Source of the DNA: Squalus acanthias
Taxonomy: Eukaryota
Direction: 5' to 3'
Assembly (NCBI GenBank): GCA_030390025.1
Contig: CM059432.1
Span: forward strand, 17,734,001-17,798,000
Length of the DNA stretch: 64,000 nt
Part shown: positions 40,101 to 57,834 of the stretch, piece after piece
How the letters are laid out: each line of letters starts with the position of its first letter
Numbering within the stretch: the stretch's first letter is position 1
The notes under the pieces: generated by a model
Database searches by the model: none
What the model was told of the DNA's origin: nothing
What the model saw: the letters and a program-made list of their open reading frames with translations, nothing else
Made by a program: the position numbers and the translations under genes

Positions 40101-42219
40101 ACCAATAGAACCAAAGGGTACTGGTACAGGGATTGTCATCAGCCTGGGAGAATGTTATCAGTGGGGACCCACAGGGGTCTGATTTGGGACCCCTTTTGTT
40201 TAATATTTTTATAAATGATCTAGAGCTAGGAGTCATAAGCGCAGTGGTTAAATGTGCAGATGATACAAAGCTAATGAAGGTGGTAGACAACATAGCTGAA
40301 CAGGATAAGCTACAGAAGGATTTGAATATACTTGGGAACTGGGCAGACTGGTGGCAGATGAAATTCAGTGTAGAGAAATAAAAAATGCTTCACACGGGGA
40401 CAGAAAATTCAGGAAGGGACTATTACTTAAATGAAAAGAAAATAATGTGCATGGGAAATGAAAGAGATCTAGGGTCTTAATTGACAATAAATTGAAGCTA
40501 TCGCAACAATCTCATTGGCAGTGATTATCCAAATCAGATGTTGAGATGTATTAAAAGGTCAATATTGAGCCGAAATAGTGAGCTCATCCTGCCACTTTAT
40601 AATTCATTGGTGCGACTGCATTTAGAATACTGTGCACAGTTCTGGTCACCAAAGTACAAAAAAGATATTGCAGGTATTGGAAGGATCCAGAAGAGAACAA
40701 CTAGAATGTACTGACGAAGGGTCATCGACCTGAAACGTTAACTCTGTTTCTCTCTCCACAGATGCTGCCTGACCTGCTGAGTATTTCCAGCATTTTCTGT
40801 TTTTAACCAGAATGATGTCTGGGTCTGTTGTAGACTAATTGATTGAGATTGATTGATATAATTAGTCAACAACTCCATATCGTTGTATCGTGCGACTACC
40901 AGCTTGGTAGATGGCGAACCAAATGGAGCTTGGGTCTTTCTTCGTTTTGCATGACACATCTCATTCAACCTCTGACCTATCAGAGGAATGAATAGGAGTA
41001 AAAGAGGAGTCAATGTTTTTGCTGGTTGTCAGTTATTGATCAGCAAGATTGAATGTGTTAGGTTATTCTCTCTGTCCCACTATTATACCCATCTAACATC
41101 AAAGAAATGAAACAGAACCAGAAAATCTCATTCATTAGCTGCTACTAAAAAAGAATTTCAAGCCCCAATTGCCCATCGAACGAGCAGGCCTTTCTTTGAG
41201 AAGGCCAACATCAACAGTTGTTCCCAGAGTGAGATTGGACTGATCATATAAAAACATCTGTGAGAAGTCGCACAACACCAAGTTATAGTCCAACAGCTTT
41301 ATTTGAAATCACAAGCTTTCGGAGCGCTGCTCCTTCGTCAGGTGAAGTGAAGAGATGCATATGGGCACAGCATAAATAGTCAGAGAACAATGCCAGATGA
41401 TTACAGTTAATCTTTCTAACTGCCCTTTATCACACCTCGGCAGAGAGATAATCACGGCAATCAAAGGTGTGGAGACACACGACAACGCAAAAATCGTCGA
41501 GCAGAAACTGATAGCCAAGTTCCGCACCCATGAGGACGGCCTCAACCGGGATCTTGAGTTCATGTCACGCTACATGTAACCCCACCTGACGTAGAGTCAT
41601 CCAGACTCGAGCCGTCGTTGGCTTGTTCTCTCTACACAGATGCGGCCGGACCTGCTGTGATTTCCAGCAAAATAAGTTTTTTGTTTTCCATACAGACCCC
41701 AGCATCTGCCACATTTGACCCCTTGTGACCCCACCTCATTGTCTTTGATGTAATGTTTTCCTGACTGACCTGTTTGGACACCATCCACACCTTTGATTGC
41801 CGTGATTATCTCTCTGCCGAGGTGTGATAAAGGGCAGTTAGAAAGATTAACTGTAATCATCTGGCAGTGTTCTCTGACTATATATGCTGTGCCTATATAC
41901 ATCTCTTCACTTCACCTGACGAAGGAGCAGCGCTCCGAAAGCTTGTGATTTCAAATAAAGCTGTTAGACTATAACCTGGTGTTGTGCGACTTCTCACATT
42001 TGTCCACCCCAGTCCAACACCGGCATCTCCACATCATATAAAAACATGGATAGGGCCAGTGTATTCAGCTACAGCCATTAATGATGAAGATTCTCTATTA
42101 CCTACCTTATCTTGTATGAATCGAGCATCTTTGTTTGAGGACTTCAGCAGCATCTGTACTATGTTGAGAGCACCGCTTGGTCGACTAGCTGCACAGTGTA
42201 GAGGCAACTGATCCTTATG
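4031..42219 (-). CDS. trpn1: TRPN1/NompC mechanosensitive TRP channel, partial gene span: 9 exons encoding 341 aa of the N-terminal ankyrin-repeat array; 5' and 3' exons lie outside the window
   Basis: Nine GT-AG phase-0 exons splice into one open frame. The peptide is colinear with recalled NompC/TRPN1 ankyrin repeats, e.g. EGQTPLHxAAx[29 protein letters not shown]......KKGVx[14 protein letters not shown]....P.VV.TLLGFGA.V...[16 protein letters not shown]. Confidence 0.93.
6190..6872 (+). repeat. Complex (GT)n micro/minisatellite with higher-order unit ~gtgtgtgcgtgagtgtgtgtgtgtatttattag
   Basis: Read directly; source of the spurious HT-rich ORF. Confidence 0.95.
7501..7602 (-). CDS. trpn1: TRPN1 exon: [34 protein letters not shown]
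   Basis: 102 nt; acceptor ctctacag, donor GAG|gtaaga. Confidence 0.93.
8710..9110 (+). mobile_element. tRNA-derived SINE family B (possibly Meta/MESC-domain type); other copies at 29829-30230 and 32920-33330
   Basis: tRNA-like A/B boxes, core ctggttcactaatgtcctttagggaaggaaatctgccgtccttacc, and a tail shared with the LINE at 59900-62040. Confidence 0.75.
9639..9839 (-). CDS. trpn1: TRPN1 exon (two ankyrin repeats): [67 protein letters not shown]
   Basis: 201 nt; acceptor ttcactag, donor AAG|gtaagg; overlaps ORF 9576-9830. Confidence 0.93.
10255..10405 (+). repeat. Three copies of a ~50-bp unit (caggactccggcaatgcgtggagagggatacttc)
   Basis: Read directly. Confidence 0.8.
10930..11330 (-). mobile_element. 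CR1 LINE 3' end
   Basis: ORF 11024-11365 ([34 protein letters not shown]) and (ttcttatg)n tail. Confidence 0.9.
12835..12933 (-). CDS. trpn1: TRPN1 exon: [33 protein letters not shown]
   Basis: 99 nt; acceptor ttatag, donor AAG|gtagaa; translated by hand. Confidence 0.93.
12985..14742 (-). mobile_element. DeuSINE-type SINE (12985-13252 and 14598-14742) split by a CR1 insertion (13253-14597)
   Basis: The SINE breaks at gtgccatgggat and resumes at ttttacatc..gacagtgcagcactccc; ORFs 13422-13991 and 14004-14585 are CR1 RT ([18 protein letters not shown]). Confidence 0.88.
15998..16706. mobile_element. PIF/Harbinger-type MITE
   Basis: TIRs gggctggatttt / aaaatccagccc; 3-bp TSD TTT (15995-97 and 16707-09); host CR1 resumes seamlessly. 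Confidence 0.85.
17227..20860 (-). mobile_element. Near full-length CR1 LINE (3.6 kb): ORF1 SGNH-esterase remnant plus ORF2 APE endonuclease and RT, frameshifted
   Basis: [30 protein letters not shown] (ORF1); [24 protein letters not shown] (APE); [19 protein letters not shown] (RT). Confidence 0.93.
21132..21812. mobile_element. Second copy of the same MITE family, opposite orientation
   Basis: TIRs gggctggatttt / aaaatccaaccc; internal blocks shared with 15998-16706. Confidence 0.82.
24791..24892 (-). CDS. trpn1: TRPN1 exon: [34 protein letters not shown]
   Basis: 102 nt; acceptor gttacag, donor AAG|gtattt; not in ORF track, translated by hand. Confidence 0.92.
25092..26170. mobile_element. 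GC/CpG-rich non-autonomous Harbinger-like element containing a CR1 3' fragment (25418-25765, minus)
   Basis: Ends ggggagaaattt / aagtttctagccc; repeated subterminal tagcgcc motifs; related to 44378-45121 and 49075-49218. Confidence 0.65.
26600..27065 (-). mobile_element. L2 LINE 3' end
   Basis: [29 protein letters not shown]2 tail ggcgctgtataaata and (ttg)n. Confidence 0.85.
27365..27815 (-). mobile_element. DeuSINE-type (SacSINE1-like) tRNA SINE
   Basis: tRNA head, Deu-like core gctgcactgtcagaggtgctgtc, L2-type tail. Confidence 0.8.
28512..28613 (-). CDS. trpn1: TRPN1 exon: [34 protein letters not shown]
   Basis: 102 nt; acceptor atgcag, donor AAG|gtacct. Confidence 0.92.
30290..30800 (+). 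mobile_element. Vingi/Ingi-type LINE 3' end; a second copy at 38840-39304 is split by a SINE fragment (~38946-39165)
   Basis: Encodes [64 protein letters not shown], then ccatacga and a (gaa)n tail. Confidence 0.7.
31033..31281 (+). mobile_element. 3' end of the LINE family seen at 59900-62040
   Basis: Near-identical to 61790-62040 ([33 protein letters not shown]). Confidence 0.85.
31520..31618 (-). CDS. trpn1: TRPN1 exon: [33 protein letters not shown]
   Basis: 99 nt; acceptor ttttcag, donor AAT|gtgagt. Confidence 0.92.
33410..33735 (+). mobile_element. CR1 3' end inserted among Penelope-like fragments (33330-33950)
   Basis: CR1 tail sequence; downstream aggtcatcgacctgaaacgttaactctg..gatgctgcctgacctgctgag is a PLE-type 3' UTR. 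Confidence 0.75.
34386..34490 (-). CDS. trpn1: TRPN1 exon: [35 protein letters not shown]
   Basis: 105 nt; acceptor ttccacag, donor AAG|gtacaa; ankyrin repeat. Confidence 0.9.
34540..34965 (-). mobile_element. DeuSINE-type SINE, full length
   Basis: tRNA head, Deu-like core and L2 tail. Confidence 0.85.
35150..35572 (+). mobile_element. DeuSINE-type SINE, full length
   Basis: gtggctcagtgggtagcacactcgcc..ggttcaagg head; aaaggcgctatagaaatgcaagtctttc tail. Confidence 0.85.
37145..37660 (+). mobile_element. DeuSINE-type SINE containing a 91-bp Penelope-like insert (37223-37313)
   Basis: Insert flanked by an 11-bp direct repeat TCCAGAGACTT (37212-22 and 37314-24). Confidence 0.85.
37263..37304 (-). 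ncRNA. Minimal hammerhead motif in the 91-bp PLE insert
   Basis: Minus strand TCAC-CTGAGGA-A-GGGGC..GCTCC-GAAA-GC-TT-GTGA. Confidence 0.62.
37784..37818 (-). ncRNA. Minimal hammerhead motif, second PLE family
   Basis: Minus strand GTT-CTGAGGA-A-AGGTC(ACT)GACCT-GAAA-CG-TT-AAC. Confidence 0.62.
38445..38817 (-). mobile_element. RTE LINE insertion with an inverted 5' segment
   Basis: (gaa)n tail and 3' end on minus (38445-38520); plus-strand RTE peptide [32 protein letters not shown]; 13-bp TSD GACTCAGCAGTAT. Confidence 0.85.
39505..40095 (+). mobile_element. L2 LINE 3' fragment
   Basis: ORF 39430-39981: [36 protein letters not shown]. Confidence 0.9.
40100..40850 (+). mobile_element. Older CR1 fragment containing a short Penelope-like insert (~40709-40808)
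   Basis: [28 protein letters not shown]; the insert is flanked by agaatg. Confidence 0.8.
40708..40742 (+). ncRNA. Minimal hammerhead motif, second PLE family
   Basis: GTA-CTGACGA-A-GGGTC(ATC)GACCT-GAAA-CG-TT-AAC. Confidence 0.6.
41309..41345 (-). ncRNA. Minimal type I hammerhead ribozyme motif (PLE), in TRPN1 pre-mRNA sense
   Basis: Reverse-complement copy of 41912-41948. Confidence 0.7.
41912..41948 (+). ncRNA. Minimal type I hammerhead ribozyme motif (PLE)
   Basis: TCAC-CTGACGA-A-GGAGC(AGC)GCTCC-GAAA-GC-TT-GTGA. Confidence 0.7.
42106..42219 (-). CDS. trpn1: TRPN1 exon (most 5' in window): [38 protein letters not shown]
   Basis: 114 nt; acceptor ttttcag, donor AAG|gtaggt; ankyrin repeat. 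Confidence 0.9.
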
Positions 42220-42496: not shown

Positions 42497-44290
42497 TAAA
42501 ATTTCTGGCAGGGGAGAGGCGGGCCTAGAAGTTGGGCTGCTTGGTGAACACTTTTCAAGGCGCTACACGGCCTGCTAAGGCCCCAAAATGGCGCCCGGAA
42601 GTGCGCCTTCCGCCATATAGGTAGAGGAGGTAGCGCTCGCGTCAGGAGCGCACGCAGACAGCGTTTAAAGTCAAAAATAATTTTTGTAGTTGAGGGCCCT
42701 GCGGTTCGTTTTTGGACTTTCCCAGTGCTTCACCGGCCACGTGTTGACCTCTCAGCACAACGTGACGCTAATGGGCATGAAGGTCCTCTCGCCAGCGCTA
42801 TTGAAAGGGATCATCCAGTACTTGCAGGTTAGTTGCTGGTTCACTACTTCTGGCTACTCTTTGACTTCTGGGCATTTTTCACTGACTTCAAAGTTCACTT
42901 TGTCTGCACAGGTAGAGATTTTGCTGCTTTTTGCACTGTTTTTGCTCTTTGACTCGCAACGTGTCTGGCTGCAGATATGGGTGGTCTGGTAAGGCTGGGA
43001 ATAGAACATGATTGGGAGACACCACAAAGCAGGCGAAGCTGCCAGAGGAGGTAGGAGGAGGAGGAGGGCACTCAACAGGAGGCCATATCCACCGAGGGTC
43101 TTCAGGGAACACTTCTTCTATCCTTAACATGACTGAGGAGCAATGTATGAGTCGCTTTCGCCTTACCAAGGCTACGCCACCTGCTCCAGGCTCAACTACA
43201 GCCTCAACCCAGGGCATGAACAGCACAGTCTATGGCTGTCAAGGTCACTGTCGCCCTCAACTTTTATGCAACGGGCTCCTTTCAGGCTGCAACAGGTGAC
43301 ATTAGCAACATCTCCCAGTTTGCAGTGCACCGATGTATCAGGGAGGTCACCGAGGCTCTATACACCAAAAGAAACACCGACATCTCCTTCCCTATCTCAC
43401 ACCCAAGTCCCGTTCACCCATCACCCCTGCTGCTCGCTGACCTACATTGGCTCCTGGTCAGGCAACGCTTCGATTTTAAAATTATCATCCTTGTTTTCAA
43501 ACCTCTACATGGTCTCGCCCCTCCCTATCACTGTAACCTCCTCCAGCCCTACAACCCCTCTGAGATCTCTGCGTTCCTCCAATTCTGGCCTCCTGAGCAT
43601 CCCCGATTTTAATCGCTCCACCATTGGCGGCCGTGCCTTCAGCTGCCAAGGCCCCAACCTCTGGAATTCCCTCCCTAAACCTCTCCACCTCTCTCTCCTC
43701 TTTTAAGGCGCTTCTTAAAACCTACCTCTTTGACCAAGCTTTTGGTCACCTGCCTTAATAGCTCCTTATGTGGCTCAGCATCAAATTTTTTTTGATAACG
43801 CTCCTGCGATGCATCGAGACATTTAATAACTACATTAAATGTAAGTTGTTGTTGCTGTTGTTGTTATTGACAGAGTGAAGCAGGATGAACAAGCATGAGG
43901 TATTGCCCGCATGGTGGACAGTGCGTTACGTGTTCCACATCAGCACCCTGGAATATTTATCAATCGGAAGGGATTCCACTCCCTCAACGTACAACTGGTT
44001 TGAAACCACAGGCAGTGCATCATGCAGGCCTGCGTCTTGCTATCCCGGCAGCAGTCATGACTCTTTCATTCTGTGCCAGTCCTCCGCGGTGACTTTATTC
44101 CAACCAGGCCGCCAAGGTACAAGCTGACTATTGGGCAAGAAAGGTTATCGCTTCCGGTGGAGTGCGGTGAGTGCAGCAGTGGGGACGACTCCAGTTAGGA
44201 ACCCGAAGATGCACAGCACGCCTCCAATGAGAGCCATGCTGCCACAAGGAACCCCAATGCAGCAAACAATCGACATGCTCAAGCAGCACG
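42497..44290 (+). mobile_element. Degenerate PIF/Harbinger transposase gene, interrupted by an L2 fragment (~43395-43865)
   Basis: [79 protein letters not shown]. Confidence 0.85.
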
Positions 44291-44377
44291 AGAGAAGCGG
44301 CCTCGGCAGAGCATCGCGAGAGACCCGAGGAGTGGCTAGATAAGAAGCACGAGAGAACCAGCAGTCATAGAGTCTAA

Positions 44378-45121
44378 GGGCTAAAAATTGAGTCGCGCCC
44401 CACTTTTAGCGCCCCGAAAAAATTAGCGGCCCCGCGCCGGAACTTCAGTGGTTGCGCCCCAAGAGGGAAGCGGGGCGCCACTGGAAGCACCCCGCATCCC
44501 TCTTGGGGCGCTGCGAGTCAATATCGTGGCGCTATGTGCTGCAGCGCCAGGCGCTGCGGCACGTCGCGCCGCGGTATTGCAGGCCTTCCTCCCCTTCTTA
44601 AAGGGGAGGGACCCTGCGCAGCGCGAACCGGGGCCCAGCTGGGCCCCCAGGGATCGGGAGTGCCGGCAAAAGAGCCCGGCACTCAAGAGAAGTGCCGGGC
44701 TCTTGGAGCGCAGCCGGCACTTCACGGTGGGGGGGCTTCACGGGGTCCGGGGACAGCAACGGGGGCAGGTGCTGGCAGGCGGCCAGCAACAAAAATGGCC
44801 GCCTGCCACCTCCCCTTTAAATATCGCCGCCCCGGCCGCACGTACGCCTCCCTGAACCCGTCGGACATAGCGTCTGGCGGTAAATCAGGGGGCGCGACTG
44901 AAGATCGCGGCTGGAGCGCGAGCGGGGTGCTGCGCACGGCGATGACGTCATCGCCGGCGGCGCAGCGCCACAGGGCGCTACCGGCTGGCGCCGCCGCTAA
45001 CCTCCCGCTGAATTTTGCGGGAGGCGTGGGTAGCGCTGCGCCCGGGCGTTAGCTGCTTTACGCCCCATTAGCGCCCTCTTAAGGCGCTAACGGGAGGCGC
45101 AAGCAGCTGAATTTTTCCCCC
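44378..45121. mobile_element. CpG-rich non-autonomous Harbinger-like element
   Basis: Ends gggctaaaaatt / aatttttcccc; tagcgcc subterminal motifs as at 25092-26170. Confidence 0.65.
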
Positions 45122-51131: not shown

Positions 51132-51270
51132 ACACAATACCTTATATGGCAGTGATGTCTCATCTACGTCATAATCGGTGCCGAACACATCATGTCGCCA
51201 ATCCCTTACAAGGCAGTGAAAGCTCACAAAAATCTAACACATCATAATAGACGCCTCATATATTATAAGC
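51132..51270 (+). promoter_or_regulatory. Protamine Z1 promoter: CArG box CCTTATATGG (51140-51149), CRE half-site CGTCA (51167-51171), CArG-like CCTTACAAGG (51204-51213), TATA-like TATAAG (51264-51269)
   Basis: Motifs read directly; colinear with the Z2 promoter. Confidence 0.7.
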
Positions 51271-51350
51271 TGTGAAAGATATTAAAACATCAAAAAAAAG
51301 ACAAAATACTGGGATTCAAGAAGCAAAAGAAAGCTGAAAAGGACACAATA

Positions 51351-51506
51351 ATGCAGTGCGGTAAGCCAAAAAAGAAACCAGAAGCTTGTTTTTTACGAAG
51401 GCGGCACTTGCGACGCCTCCATATATGCAAAAGGGACAGATCTAAAACTTATCGAAGGAGACGCCACATTAGAAGATTGCCAAAAAGACGAAGAAGAAGA
51501 TGTTAA
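51351..51506 (+). CDS. Sperm protamine Z1-like (scylliorhinine Z1 type), 51 aa, intronless: [51 protein letters not shown]
   Basis: Translated by hand: 18 Arg, 7 Lys, 4 Cys. Closely resembles the recalled dogfish Z1 (..KPKKK...[39 protein letters not shown]). Upstream TATA; AATAAA at 51638 and 51654. Confidence 0.92.
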
Positions 51507-51637
51507 AAGTTGACTATGCCAGATTCATCCAGCCAACTAGTAACATTCTTAATGAATTTTGTGAAGAAAAATTCACTTCGTGAAGAGATCCTCTCTGAAA
51601 TCAATGCTGTCGCTGCTTTATATACTGCGGCAATTTG

Positions 51638-51659
51638 AATAAACTTCAAATCAAATAAA
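51638..51659 (+). terminator. Tandem poly(A) signals (AATAAA x2) of the protamine Z1-like gene
   Basis: AATAAA at 51638-51643 and 51654-51659, about 130 nt after the stop, followed by GT/T-rich sequence. Confidence 0.7.
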
Positions 51660-52719
51660 CATTGTGTACCTTGTTTTCAATTAAGTGTCCTGTTGATCCT
51701 CATTTACTGATCTATGATGTAACCATTTATAATCGCCTTTCTTGTAACTTTTTTACTCTTTTACTGTCTCTTTAATACTATGGGCTTCCTTGGGGCAATG
51801 CGGAGCCAATACAAAGTGGTCCACCAGATTCAGCTCCTGAGGTGGCAGATCTCAACTGGGACATCAAAATCAGTAGCTTCTGAATCGAGAATGGGGAAGA
51901 ATAGCCAAAGCTCCTGCTCCTGAATGCTATCCAATGACCTTCACTGGGAAAGTGCACTTGGGGGGATTTTAGAGCTCAGCTGCGACGCCACTGACATGTA
52001 ATGGTGCGCTGCTGTTCAATCCTGGCCTAAGTTGTCTGGCTCCGGTGGATCTGCAGAGGATGGGGCCAAGACCATGCTTTCAACCCCCCGCACCTTTGGC
52101 AGAAAATATATGTTCACCCACTCGTAAATGGGGAAACGCGGTCTCCAAGTTTTCCGTAATTAAGCCTAATCGAGCGCTGGGTGCAAGGACCCGCCTGCCC
52201 TGGGGGTTTAACAGAAGAGCCTGTGCAAATGGTCTCAGAGCGCAGCCGTACGCAGACCCCATCAACAAGGGGAATTTTATTTATGTTTGACTGGAATGAA
52301 AGCTACTCTTCTGACTCCGGCAGTCCTGTGTGCATTGACTGCAGCTGAGACCATTCAGTTCTGTAATGAATCCTATTGGGGTGAAATCACAACATGCAAT
52401 ATTTTATGTCTATATTAAATTCCTGAAGAAGTTATGTCGAGATACAAAGGAGCAACAGATACAAATGATCGTGTATCCGAAGCACATCCCCAGCATAGAC
52501 GCTATCATTCCTCTAAATGTTAAATCCGGTGACGTAAAGGATGAGCTCCCCACCACCCACCCAAAAAAAATGTTGTTCGTGTTAATTGGACCTTATTCTT
52601 GATACTTACATTTGGAGTTTGTCCAGATATACAAAGAGAAAAGAGAGGAAAACCCAACAAGTAGACTTCCAATATCGGGCTGCTGTGTCGCCGGCAGCAG
52701 TGCCTCGGGTAAATCTTAA

Positions 52720-53235
52720 AGGGGTAGGGAAGACGACCGGGATAGGGGGGCGACCGGGAGAGGGGGGCGACCGGGAGAGTGGGCAACCGGGAGAGAGGGG
52801 CAATTGGCAGAGGGGGGTGATTGGGAAAGGGGGCGATTAGGAGAGGGAGCGATCAGGGGAGGGGGATCGGGAGAGGGAGCGATCGGGGGAGAGAGCCGAT
52901 CGGAAGTGGGAGATTGGGGGGGGGAGACGGGGAGAGGGGGGCGATTGGGAGGGGGAGATTGGTAGAGGGGAGCGATCGGGTGAGGGGGAAATCGGGAGAG
53001 GACGGATCGGGAGAAGGGGGCAATCGTGAGAGGGGGATCGGGGGAGATCGGGAAAGGGGCATTGAGAGGGACGTTCGGGAGAGGTGGGGATCGGGGGAGG
53101 GTGCAATCAGGAGTGGGAGCGATCGGGAGGGGTTGGCGACGTGATTGGAGGGTCGAGATCGCAATTGGAGGTGTCAAGCTCCCAATCAGGGCAGGGATGT
53201 GGCGATCAGGGGTGGGTGCTTCGATCGAGGTGGGA
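52720..53235 (+). repeat. Purine/G-rich low-complexity repeat ((c)gatcgggrg units), probably the interior of a non-autonomous DNA transposon
   Basis: Dozens of G3-G7 runs spaced by gatc/gatt; source of the Pro-rich and Gly-rich ORFs. Confidence 0.8.
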
Positions 53236-53344
53236 GATCAGAAATCTATCTAATTTCTAGAAGGCATTTACAGAGTTCCTCATGAAAGGCTATTAGTTAA
53301 CCTCAAAGCTGTGGAGATTCAGGGAAATTCTTATGTAAAGATAT

Positions 53345-55363
53345 GGGGTGAAATACTATAACGCTGGAAAATGGGCAGGAGCACAGTAAAGTGAGATATG
53401 CCTGTACACAGTCAAAAAGCGCAGGCTGACGTCAACTTCGTGCTGTCTACTAATTACCATAATTGTAGTGCAAAACGGAACGCGCTCCTGACAGGCTGTG
53501 TGCTCAGCAGGGGGCCGAAGTTCACGTCGCTGAAGCAAGACAAACTTTACTTAAAGCTAGCCTACTCCTCCACAAGGCAGTCTGCAGCTCTTAAAGGTGA
53601 GCTGCCTTCTGCTGATCAAAAATGCCAAAAGTGCTTCAGCACTAACACAAATGGCTCAACAGGCCAGGGAAACGACACCCAGGGTCTCGGACGCAGCACT
53701 TGAGCTTTGTGCAGGGGGTTAATACTGGAAGAGAGGTCCTCTACCCACAGGGGCCTCCAGAAAGAAGGATGTGGGACCAGATCGCCGAGGCAATGCCGCC
53801 TGGGACCCCAGGACCTGGCTCTAGAGCCCAAAGAAGTTTCATGACCTCAAACGAGTGGTCAAGGTCAGTGAATACATCTTCAAAAGCCATCTCCTACCAA
53901 CTACATCACTAGCCTCACACACTGCTCAATGCATGACCACCCCACCCCCACCCCCGCCCCCCATCACTCACATACCAACAATCTCTACCAAACACAAGGC
54001 ACACCTCACATTCCTAGCTTCACCTGTTGGAGGAGACAGTGCTGGCAATTCTTGGCAGGGGCATGGCTGAGCCCTTGGCTAACGGCGGGGCTGAAAGAAT
54101 ACAAGATGCCAGTATCCTCATACATTATCCTCCTTCTCACATCCCACTTCACCCGCATCCCAGAATCTCTTCTGATTTACAAGCTGCACATGGTGTAAGC
54201 ATGCACCTCTTGCTTTCCCCTCCTCACCTCATCACATTTCTTCTTCATTTCAGACACCCAAGAAATCCAGCCTGCCAGCCAATGCTTGACCCAGAAGAGG
54301 GGGAGGAGAGTGACGAAAAAGAAGAAACATCATCACTCAATTTCACACTCCCAGCCACCAGCTCCTCCACTGAAAGTCAGCAGCCTTCCACCAGCCATGC
54401 TGCAGCCATTGGGGTAGCACTGTGTAACAGCACTAGGATAGGCAGGACAGTCACTAAGGGAATGCACAAGGGTGATTAGTTGATTTTTTGATGTAATATT
54501 GGATGCATATATGGATAAAGTTGGATTGGAAAGTTTGCTTTGTGCTTGCTTTTATTTCAGCATTGTGGCCAAGAGGACGCTGTGATGGTCAGTAACAGAG
54601 GGAAAGGAAGTTGTGGGACAGATGTTGAAAGGGAATTGGGGTTGTGTTCACTGGTACCGCAGGCGGAGGATTCGATCCCAGATATCCCGGCCAGAAAGGG
54701 GCTGTCTGGGTTGCCTCCTTCCTTCCGCTTCCTCTCTTCCGCTTCCTCCTCCCTCTGCTTCTCCTCCCTCTGCGAGCAGTTTGTCCCCTTTGCTGCCTCT
54801 CCTCTATCTCCATGTGATGCTGCAGCCCAAGAGGGACTGCAGCTAGAGTCCCCGGGACTGGGAACAAGTGGTCTTCTTAGAGGCCTTCATTTAACAACCA
54901 AAGCTTTACAAACACCCAACAGCACTCCCTGCACACTTTAACAACTTTTTAAATGTATTGCACCAAGCCACAACTCCAATAAAATGTAAGGAAGCCTGTC
55001 CAAAAGCAAAAAACTACACTTAGCTGAAAGTTGTGTGTGTCCCTTTAAGAAGCGCTGGTAGTGGCTCCGTTGTACTGCTGCACGCACGTTCTTCCGTGCA
55101 TGGTTTGGAGAGGGCGTTATTAGCAGTGGCGACATCCAAAATCAGAGATCGTGCGTCAGTTCACACGTTGCACGCTGAGTGATGTCACGATCTGGATCAT
55201 TTAAATACGGGAAGCGAGAGCTGGCAGCAGCAGTGCTGCCAACCTGCCGCAAAATGGCGGCCGCCGCGTTCCGCACTGGAAGCCAGCAGAAGCGAGGCAG
55301 CCGCCATTTTTTTCCACCAAACCGGCCTTAACAGCCGACGTTAAAAGGCTCCAAATTCGCGGC
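53345..55363. mobile_element. Degenerate Harbinger-type element (Myb/SANT-like ORF remnant on plus, acidic transposase-tail-like remnant on minus)
   Basis: Ends ggggtgaaat / aaattcgcggcc; RRMWDQIAEAM Myb-like remnant. Confidence 0.5.
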
Positions 55364-56291
55364 CAACGTATCAAAATATTCCAGCTGGAAGGTGAGGGGA
55401 AAAAATCTAACCAATGGGGCTCGCCGTGAGATGGCCCACTCCAGCAAACTCTGGGCCAATAGGGAACTGGGTAGAACAATGGCCGATAAAGTTTAATAAC
55501 GACAGATGTAAACTGCTACTCATTGGAAGGAAACACATGTAACTTTGTGAATTGACTTCAAATAGCTTGGGATGAAGTTGAGAAAAAAGCCAGGGGGTCT
55601 AAGCAAACGCGGCGCTCACATTTTCCAACCAATGCAGACCAGCAAAGCTGACAATGTTGAACCAATGGAATACAATTTAGAGAAAGTCAATGATCAAACA
55701 ATGGGGAGAGAGCGGGAATATGGTATTGAGATAGAGGATCAGCCATGATCATATTGAATGGCGGAGCAGGCTCGAAGGGCCGACTGGCCTGCTCCTGCTC
55801 CTATTTTTCTATGTTTCTATGTTTCTAACTGTACAGTGGTCTGGACAGACCATACCTTGAGCACTATATCTGGCCACTGGGGACAGAGGGGAGCTACTCA
55901 AACACTCGAGGCAGCACAGAGGAGAGCCACAAAGGCTGAAGGCCGGGCTTAAAAGGTCTGTTATGAAGAAAGACTGGCTTTTCATCCCGAGAGGTAATCT
56001 TTTAGAGCGGACAAGACTGTTAATGGTATGGTAAAGGTAAATCCAGTTTTAATTAAACAGTGAGAACAGACTCAGTTGCCTGCCTGCACATTGATAGGTG
56101 TCAGGTGATCAGACATCACGTGATCAGACCTTCAGGAATGCCTCCAACCAGATTTGGCAACTCTATGACACATAAACTTGATTGTACTCAACAATCCACT
56201 GGTGAGAAGTATATATACGAAGCGTAAATATGCTTTTGTGAGTTTTAACCCCATTGTGTAGGCCTGGAGGATAAACTATAGTAGCTTTATA

Positions 56292-56445
56292 CAACAATAC
56301 CTTATAAGGCAATGATACTCGCTCGCATCACAATCAACACTGAGCGCCTCATGTTTAATGTCAAATATGGACCTTACAAGGCCGTGGAAAACTGCAAAAT
56401 CACGGCGACATCACAGTAGGCCAGACCTATGAAAAAACTATAAAA
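56292..56445 (+). promoter_or_regulatory. Protamine Z2 promoter: CArG box CCTTATAAGG (56300-56309), CArG-like CCTTACAAGG (56372-56381), CRE-like CGACATCA (~56406), TATAAAA (56439-56445)
   Basis: Motifs read directly; colinear with the Z1 promoter. Confidence 0.72.
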
Positions 56446-56495
56446 CTGGAAATTGCAACATTTAGAAAAGAAAGTCAGTGGTTAAACTCTGAACC

Positions 56496-56639
56496 ATGAA
56501 GAGGTGTGGGCGCAAGCGCAGGCGCAGGCGCAGAAATGCGTGCAAGCCGAAGAAGCGGCCGTGCAAGCAAAGATCGAGTACTATTGTCAGAGCCCATCTT
56601 GTTCATCGCAGAAGAGCTGCAAGACGTTGCGCTCATTAA
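56496..56639 (+). CDS. Sperm protamine Z2-like (scylliorhinine Z2 type), 47 aa, intronless: MKRCGRKRRRRRRNACKPKKRPCKQRSSTIVRAHLVHRRRAARRCAH
   Basis: Translated by hand: 16 Arg, 6 Lys, 4 Cys. Closely resembles the recalled dogfish Z2 (MKCGRKRRRRRRHACKRKKRACKQRSSTIVRAHLVHRR..ARRCP). Kozak accATG, TATAAAA at 56439, AATAAA at 56796. Confidence 0.93.
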   Translation: MKRCGRKRRRRRRNACKPKKRPCKQRSSTIVRAHLVHRRRAARRCAH

Positions 56640-56795
56640 GAAGCTACAATAGACCAAAGAAGAAATAGTGAGAACCATGTTTGAGCTGAGCTAACGAGTG
56701 CTCTGAAAATGTGCACGAGGCCGACTTGTACTTGAAGGGAACTATATTTGAATGCAACTTCGCTACTTCACACCCATGTTCACTGATTCAAATTG

Positions 56796-56801
56796 AATAA
56801 A
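56796..56801 (+). terminator. Poly(A) signal of the protamine Z2-like gene
   Basis: AATAAA about 157 nt after the stop; context caaattgAATAAA resembles Z1 caatttgAATAAA. Confidence 0.7.
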
Positions 56802-57834
56802 ACGCCTACAAGTACTTGAGACTTGAAAGAACTAAAATATTGTGTATGGCTCAAGTTTTTCTTCAGGTGTAAGGTTTAACTATAAATTTTTGTTTCCATC
56901 TTGACTGTGCAAGCTGATCAAGCAAGAATGCTGCGGCCACTGGAAAAGCACACTGGTCTTTTGAGTAACCAAGGGTTATTCAACAGCCCCCCCTCTGAAC
57001 AGGCACCCCTGACAATACCGTACTCCCTCAGTACTGCACTAGGGTGGCAGCCGAGTTTATTATGATGAGGGGCAGAAGTGCTACTGGCTGATTGTACACC
57101 ATCAGCGCCACTTAGATTGTTGCCTCATAATTGTTGCTATCACCTTGCAACGCTAAATAGTTGAGAGTAGGACAAGTAGATACAAATTCAAACTGGTAAA
57201 AAGGCAAATTAAAACTGATGTCAAGAAGTTCTTCAGACAAATAGTGATCAATATATGGATGGACTTCTAGTTTGCAAAGGTGAAATGAATTTAAATGGGC
57301 CAAATGACCTATCCTAGACCCATCATGTTGAAAGGGGTTATGGAGACTTACCTTACTAAACTAAACTAACTCAAAAGAATAGGGAAGGCCATTCGGCCCA
57401 TCTTAATTAAACCATTAAGACCCTACAGTTCCACCCATTGCAGCATCCAGCGTTTTTACCTCCACTACTTTATCTGGGAGTCCATTCCGTGCATTGATCA
57501 CTCTTTGTGTGAAGAATCTACAGATACTAGCCCTAAATTTACCTTTTCCCAGTTTGAACCTTGTCCTTCTCTCCCAGTTTAAAGTAATATTCTGGATTTA
57601 CATTTTCCATTCCCTTAACTATCTTATATACCTCGAGAAGGTCATCTCGCAGATGCCTTCTTTCCAGGATGCAAAGCCAACTTTCTCCAGTCTTTCCTTG
57701 TAACTCAGATTACATTAGCAATCAGACTCTTGGTCCTTCTCTGCACCGCTTCCAGTGTATGAATTTCTCTATTTCTGGCAAGCAGAACTGGTTTCAGTAT
57801 GTAAGTTGTGGTCTGACCAGAGCACTGGTCTCAG

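Follow-up and report, generated by a model that had tools for sequence, protein, structure and literature searches.

Protamine and transition-type protein genes as a probable tandem family, antisense within a TRPN1 intron of Squalus acanthias

The protamines and spermatid proteins of the dogfish have been known since the 1980s. Keratinous, or Cys-rich, protamines are defined by a short length, an arginine content of at least 30 mol% and several cysteines. The closest described relative of the genes discussed here is scylliorhinine Z1 of Scyliorhinus canicula (P08433), which is known as a protein; our searches brought up nothing on its genomic setting, its promoter or its kinship with spermatid proteins. 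Here we analyse a window of 64,000 nucleotides (nt) from the shark Squalus acanthias (assembly GCA_030390025.1, 3.71 Gb; CM059432.1, hereafter C8, positions 17,734,001-17,798,000), which holds a protamine Z1 ortholog and a second, Z2-like protamine gene. One assembly was examined; the numbering of the window is extended to positions outside it, above 64,000 or below 1 (C8 position minus 17,734,000). These two genes form the 5′ end of a cluster of five paralogous genes in one orientation, the others being called g3, g4 and g5. We consider it probable that all five form one tandem-duplicated family, antisense in an intron of TRPN1, that unites the Z1 and Z2-like protamines with transition-type proteins.

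The Squalus Z1 protein shares with its Scyliorhinus counterpart the length of 51 amino acids (aa), the arginine runs and the C-terminal cysteines, at 78% identity. Another useful comparison is the mammalian cluster, which we take to be arranged as PRM1-PRM2-PRM3-TNP2 between SOCS1 and RMI2. It too combines protamines and a transition-type protein in one orientation, and its protamines are Cys-rich. The shark genes differ in that they are intronless, lie in the intron of a host gene and can all be traced to one ancestor by their flanks. The host resembles known TRPN1/NompC genes in being a complete gene for an ankyrin-TRP channel; it differs in carrying a five-gene antisense cluster.

Five genes in one orientation

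The Z1 gene is a single-exon open reading frame (ORF) on the plus strand at 51351-51506 and encodes 51 aa, with 18 Arg, 7 Lys and 4 Cys. The Z2-like gene, also a single plus-strand exon (56496-56639), encodes 47 aa with 16 Arg, 6 Lys and 4 Cys. The two ORFs start 5,145 nt apart. A preliminary description of this DNA, made from the letters alone, had reported both as intact, with a TATA box and an AATAAA beside each, and both points hold: there is a TATA-like TATAA 87 nt 5′ of the Z1 ATG and a TATAAA 57 nt 5′ of the Z2-like ATG, and poly(A) signals lie at 51638 and 51654 for Z1 and at 56796 for the Z2-like gene. With arginine at 18/51 and 16/47 and four cysteines each, both are Cys-rich protamines by the definition given above. 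Their Arg+Lys fractions, 0.49 and 0.47, rank first and second among the 3,556 ATG-initiated ORFs of 25-150 aa in the 464 kb around the window; these ORFs are therefore not due to chance.

The same description had matched the two proteins to dogfish Z1 and Z2, and here the database results divide. A search of a 5.8-billion-protein collection with Z1 gave scylliorhinine Z1 as its sole match (expectation value, E, 1.4e-14), in a cluster that includes the Swiss-Prot entry P08433 (PRTZ1_SCYCA), to which it aligns end to end over 51 aa. The corresponding search with the Z2-like protein returned one candidate and nothing at E ≤ 10, and searches of the Atlas with this protein and with g4 were likewise without match; such blanks indicate neither absence nor novelty. 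The name Z2 marks a presumed resemblance, in size, composition and probably sequence, to dogfish scylliorhinine Z2, and we use it as an assumption. Z1 and the Z2-like protein are 41% identical in what is a low-complexity alignment. None of the five cluster proteins matched the Pfam models Protamine_P1 (PF00260), P2, TP1 or TP2 at E ≤ 10, and neither did P08433; a Protamine_P1 search of the whole genome was silent, as were its controls, and is hence uninformative. It had been suggested that such small genes easily escape annotation, and an exact look-up in a collection of 15 billion proteins returned neither exact protein.

Three further members, all on the plus strand, emerged when the extended region was scanned for protein composition, a choice made prior to any promoter comparison. 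The genes g3 (88 aa; 76,973-77,239, C8:17810973-17811239, L003:2973-3239) and g4 (83 aa; 88,165-88,416, C8:17822165-17822416, L004:4165-4416) also have orthologs in a chimaera. The third, g5 (100,916-101,083, C8:17834916-17835083, L005:6916-7083), encodes a Lys-rich protein of 55 aa with 17 Lys and is placed in the cluster by its shared flanks as well as its composition. In the ranking by Arg+Lys the five ORFs take places 1, 2, 3, 7 and 8. When g3 and g4 were combined in a profile, it found two matches only among 1.84 billion representatives, both from Callorhinchus milii and both labelled ‘Uncharacterized’: A0A4W3HC88, to which g3 is 65% identical, and A0A4W3KE18, which aligns end to end with g4. 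Because g3 and g4 both have orthologs in Callorhinchus milii, both long genes predate the split between chimaeras and elasmobranchs. We presume that they correspond to S1 and S2, spermatid-specific proteins of the dogfish, with which they agree in size, composition and probably sequence.

The reading frame of g5 is open in the Squalus acanthias genome and begins like g3 and g4. In a related organism that is approximately 96% alike (sequencing run X5), the differences, which are listed in part, include a stop at codon 20 (CGG to TAG, at a CpG) and the loss of the terminal stop. This gene is probably decaying. A sixth candidate, the ORF at 104,041-104,220 (32% Arg+Lys), was dropped before alignment, having no shared upstream block by eye and no profile match, and the 464 kb contain no other ORF rich in Arg or Lys that has the shared promoter. 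Any counterparts of Z3 and S4, the other two dogfish protamines, would therefore lie elsewhere or be absent.

Shared flanks and the direction of change

The kinship of the five genes is well supported, and the evidence comes from their non-coding flanks. Upstream of Z1, the shared block (51133-51275, plus strand) contains CCTTATATGG at 51140, CCTTACAAGG at 51204, CRE-like half-sites and a TATA-like box at 51264; upstream of the Z2-like gene (56290-56445, plus strand) it contains CCTTATAAGG at 56300, CCTTACAAGG at 56372 and TATAAA at 56439. Common to all five genes are two boxes, CCTTATAWGG and CCTTAMAAGG, spaced 57-72 nt apart, CRE-like half-sites and a TATA-like box, with one of the two boxes degenerate in g3 and in g5. 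The names CArG, for the two boxes, and CRE are used here as consensus labels. In a leave-one-out test, a profile was trained on four genes (on the 230 nt upstream, or on the downstream part) and the fifth was sought across the 464 kb. With the upstream profiles the omitted gene was the top non-training match in all five trials, at E 2e-9 for Z1, 3e-7 for Z2-like, 4e-3 for g3, 5e-6 for g4 and 4e-5 for g5; next came the reverse strand of the palindromic boxes of g4, then unrelated sequence at E 1.4 or worse. Pairwise upstream identity is 45-56%, and since it is no higher the duplications must be old.

The likeness is collinear over about 125-200 nt upstream and resumes 3′ of the ORF. There all five genes have a TGA in common, which is the stop codon of g3 and g4, and which lies approximately 40-50 nt 5′ of the poly(A) signal. 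The distance from ATG to this TGA is 248, 256, 267, 252 and 279 nt in the five genes. It falls at 51596-51598 in the 3′ untranslated region (UTR) of Z1 (51507-51660, plus strand), which includes both AATAAA signals and a stretch like the C-terminal coding end of g3, and at 56749-56751 in the 3′ UTR of the Z2-like gene (56640-56830, plus strand), which holds the AATAAA at 56796 and the element ACAAGTACTTGAGACTTG. The downstream profiles placed the omitted gene at the top in four of five trials (Z2-like 2e-4, g3 7e-10, g4 9e-4 and g5, weakly, 0.16). As an exact pattern the 3′ element occurs at just three places in the 3.71 Gb, all in the cluster (control 0), and it is common to at least three genes. 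The exact pattern of the upstream pair likewise has three occurrences genome-wide, none of them outside the cluster (control 0 forward, 66 reverse). Both patterns were designed from the cluster genes, so that three matches each are given by construction and serve only to exclude further exact copies.

How did short and long genes arise from one another? We give about even chances to the idea that Z1 and Z2 descend from a spermatid transition-protein gene by truncation and enrichment in Cys, and that the C-terminal coding sequence they lost can still be seen in their 3′ UTRs. The short genes would then be copies in which the frame stops early and the old C-terminal coding sequence serves as 3′ UTR, a pattern that appears clear for g5, moderate for Z1 and positional only for the Z2-like gene. 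For g5, the likeness of the UTR to the part of the long genes that encodes the C-terminus was reached by 1 of 1000 shuffles against g3 and by 3-20 of 2000 against g4, although the ungapped comparison with g3 is not significant (209-319/2000). The Z1 3′ UTR agrees with g3 at 30 of 60 nt without gaps, which 7 of 2000 shuffles matched. At all four window sizes used for this pair the likeness ends on the shared TGA and the codon register is kept (LNE...R.P, then stop). A profile of g3, g4 and g5 ranked the Z1 stretch second among the non-training matches in the 464 kb, near full length, at E 4.2. The Z2-like gene agrees with the long genes only in the position of the TGA and the sequence after it. 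An unrooted tree of the five genes separates Z1 and Z2-like from g3, g4 and g5, with a bootstrap value of 75 overall and 86 on the promoters; by promoter, g5 groups with g4 (bootstrap 77).

A number of results weigh against a single family with such a history. No order of events can be taken from the tree, which lacks a root and has weak support (bootstrap 62-86, and 37-39 for the downstream part alone). In the downstream leave-one-out test Z1 was not recovered (E 4.9, not the best match). The Z1 relic varies with window size, being matched by 7, 27, 263 and 1156 of 2000 shuffles, and its gapped alignment is not significant (166/1000). The same is true of the relic in the Z2-like UTR (best ungapped 348/2000; gapped 969 and 687 of 1000). 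The Z coding sequences resemble those of g3 and g4 by composition only, the names Z2, S1 and S2 are backed by no database match, and g5 has both a premature stop and a lost terminal stop in the related organism.

Some of these points suit the opposite direction of change, which we regard as possible but unlikely. The family would be the same, but it would have started from a short gene of protamine type that had a long 3′ UTR. In g3 and g4, read-through would then have added the C-terminal domain, and the TGA region of the short genes would be an RNA control element rather than a relic of coding sequence. An unrooted tree permits this, the stops of the Z2-like gene and g5 fall at about the same alignment column, and the long survival of the TGA in three UTRs would arguably fit an RNA constraint better than neutral decay. 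However, both long forms were already present in the chimaera, and the UTR of Z1 keeps the codon register of g3. Moreover g5, with its g3/g4-like start and its grouping with g4 by promoter, looks like at least one truncation that is derived.

A more radical idea, which we consider improbable, is that the Z and S coding sequences are unrelated and that their flanks became alike because binding sites converged or gene conversion acted locally. The lack of significant likeness between the Z genes and g3 or g4 in coding sequence speaks for it, together with the modest upstream identity and the downstream result for Z1. That said, convergence has to contend with likeness that runs collinearly for 125-200 nt and continues 3′ of the ORF, with an ATG-to-TGA length that is alike in all five genes, and with a 3′ element confined to the cluster. 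Descent from one ancestral gene remains our preferred account of the flanks.

The TRPN1 host intron

The preliminary description had placed the two protamines antisense in a TRPN1 intron of more than 21 kb, with its upstream exon yet to be found. This exon, encoding aa 85-117, was located with tblastn at 110,239-110,337 on the minus strand (C8:17844239-17844337). Its end at 110,239 is followed by GT; the exon that comes next starts in phase at 42,219, preceded by AG. The latter (42106-42219, minus strand, approximately aa 118-155) has a pyrimidine tract and AG before it and GT at its end, and matches TRPN1 of Chiloscyllium, Hemitrygon and Heterodontus at 80-89% in tblastn; one window exon retrieves cartilaginous-fish TRPN1 at 91-97%. 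The junction is deduced from three of four mapped cartilaginous-fish proteins, since for the chimaera protein no match was listed at the exon that starts at 42219. The host intron between these consecutive exons spans 42,220-110,238 on the minus strand (42220-64000 within the window, and on to C8:17844238). At 68 kb it is the largest intron of TRPN1, and the third coding intron. On this assembly the nesting of the Z1 and Z2-like genes, antisense in the 68-kb intron of an intact TRPN1, is confirmed; splicing of the host across the cluster is a prediction from the mapped exons. The whole gene maps from about 161,200 to -70,300 on the minus strand in 29 aligned pieces that cover 1,629 of 1,648 aa and contain no stops.

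An assembly break had been named as a condition that would refute the nesting. The 464 kb around the window are free of N, and the exons are in order and phase. We think it very improbable that the arrangement is an artefact or that the Z1 and Z2-like ORFs are dead copies of genes elsewhere. This idea draws on the use of a single assembly, on the lack of any mapped read contig that spans the intron and on g5, which shows that copies decay here. Besides the unbroken sequence and the single complete TRPN1, a DNA search of the genome tells against it, in which Z1, the Z2-like gene and g5 each match one place and the matches of g4 are confined to g4 and g3; Z1 also retains the length of the dogfish protein and 78% of its residues.

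Is the position inside TRPN1 meaningful? It had been proposed that the locus ties sperm-chromatin genes to mechanotransduction, for which we find no support. The cluster and its host could in principle have enhancers in common or repress one another through antisense transcripts, given that all five genes are antisense to TRPN1 and lie in its largest intron. We judge this quite improbable: tandem duplication alone would produce both a common strand and a large intron, and no result ties the expression of one to that of the other. TRPN1 is most likely a passive host, and its link to the sperm genes looks incidental. Its value here is that of a landmark.

The related statement that amniotes have lost TRPN1 has to be abandoned, as proteins from turtles (n=3) and the tuatara (n=1) are 74-75% identical over approximately 1,500-1,600 aa. 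The database entries of these orthologs carry names such as ‘PP6 regulatory ankyrin repeat subunit-like’ and ‘unnamed protein product’, so that amniote TRPN1 is hidden from view. Turtles and alligators are among the animals that PMC4282873 credits with nompC.

The intron is filled with transposon-like pieces, including many fragments of long interspersed nuclear element (LINE) reverse transcriptases. Window positions 42900-44400 and 53400-55400 hold what we take to be fragments of Harbinger-type transposon genes (nuclease-like and Myb-like). A 387-aa open frame at 99,022-100,182 on the minus strand, about 0.7 kb upstream of g5, resembles a reverse transcriptase. Between the Z1 and Z2-like genes there is a purine-rich, imperfect tandem array (window 52734-53129) with a period of 16-17 and approximately 25 copies.

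Sperm chromatin and the mammalian locus

We propose that one ancestral gene, complete with promoter and 3′ end, was duplicated in tandem to give five intronless genes antisense in the TRPN1 intron. Going by dogfish and mammalian spermatid biology, the shared promoter, with its two CArG-like boxes, CRE-like half-sites and TATA box, would drive all five genes in round spermatids. The long g3 and g4 proteins would act first, as histone-displacing intermediates. Z1 and Z2 would next replace them, binding DNA through their arginine runs, and the four cysteines of each would lock the chromatin by disulfides. The nesting would be tolerated because the host and its nested genes work in different cell types. 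In mammals the order is histone, transition protein, protamine (PMC8812575). Cross-linking by the cysteines of Z1 and Z2 fits the reducing agent that dispersal of dogfish sperm chromatin needs, as it does in man and bull (PMC2110730).

The sequencing runs say little about expression. One contig of run X1, which is RNA by guess, covers L005:6876-7209, within the predicted g5 transcript, with no differences at a depth of 2.3; this is a weak hint of g5 transcription. Runs X11 and X8 have no cover over g5, which proves nothing. Part of the Z2-like stretch is present in 10 of 12 listed runs, none of which is on record as RNA; X1 has 0.31 of its 42 words, and two runs with the same species label from the same study have next to none.

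The locus had been described as distinct from the mammalian protamine cluster, and the position of the marker genes agrees: in Squalus acanthias the CLEC16A family is on C18 and RMI2 on C3802, the sperm-gene cluster being on C8 (SOCS1 itself was not located). RMI2 lies at C3802:99505-106713 on a 156-kb contig, with a gap of 501 N approximately 6.5 kb before the matched exon. The 120 of 156 kb that were covered contain no protamine-like ORF and no promoter match below E 9. This assembly may thus have broken up the region equivalent to the protamine locus of mammals. The same contig carries, at about 94-97 kb, ORFs similar to the transposon-like fragments of the window.

Where the protamines and transition proteins of vertebrates came from has long been asked, and their low-complexity sequences cannot decide it. 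Our literature search found no account of the location or kinship of shark protamine genes; it is a weak test, its coverage stopping short of the subscription journals in which the dogfish studies appeared. For amniotes, Cys-rich protamines have been argued to have arisen repeatedly (PMC13756071), in a text where the words shark, dogfish and cartilaginous do not occur. The shark cluster would add a case from outside the amniotes.

In this family the non-coding flanks carry the signal of kinship, as promoter, gene length and 3′ end are common to protamines and transition-type proteins. The flanks therefore provide alignable markers, and the TRPN1 intron an address, for locating such easily missed genes in sharks, rays and chimaeras. 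With these markers the family can be rooted and the truncation model tested. If that model is true, the array records the whole route, from long S-type genes through one failing truncation to two successful ones. Disulfide-locked protamines, and a cluster of protamines with a transition protein, would then have arisen independently of the mammalian one.

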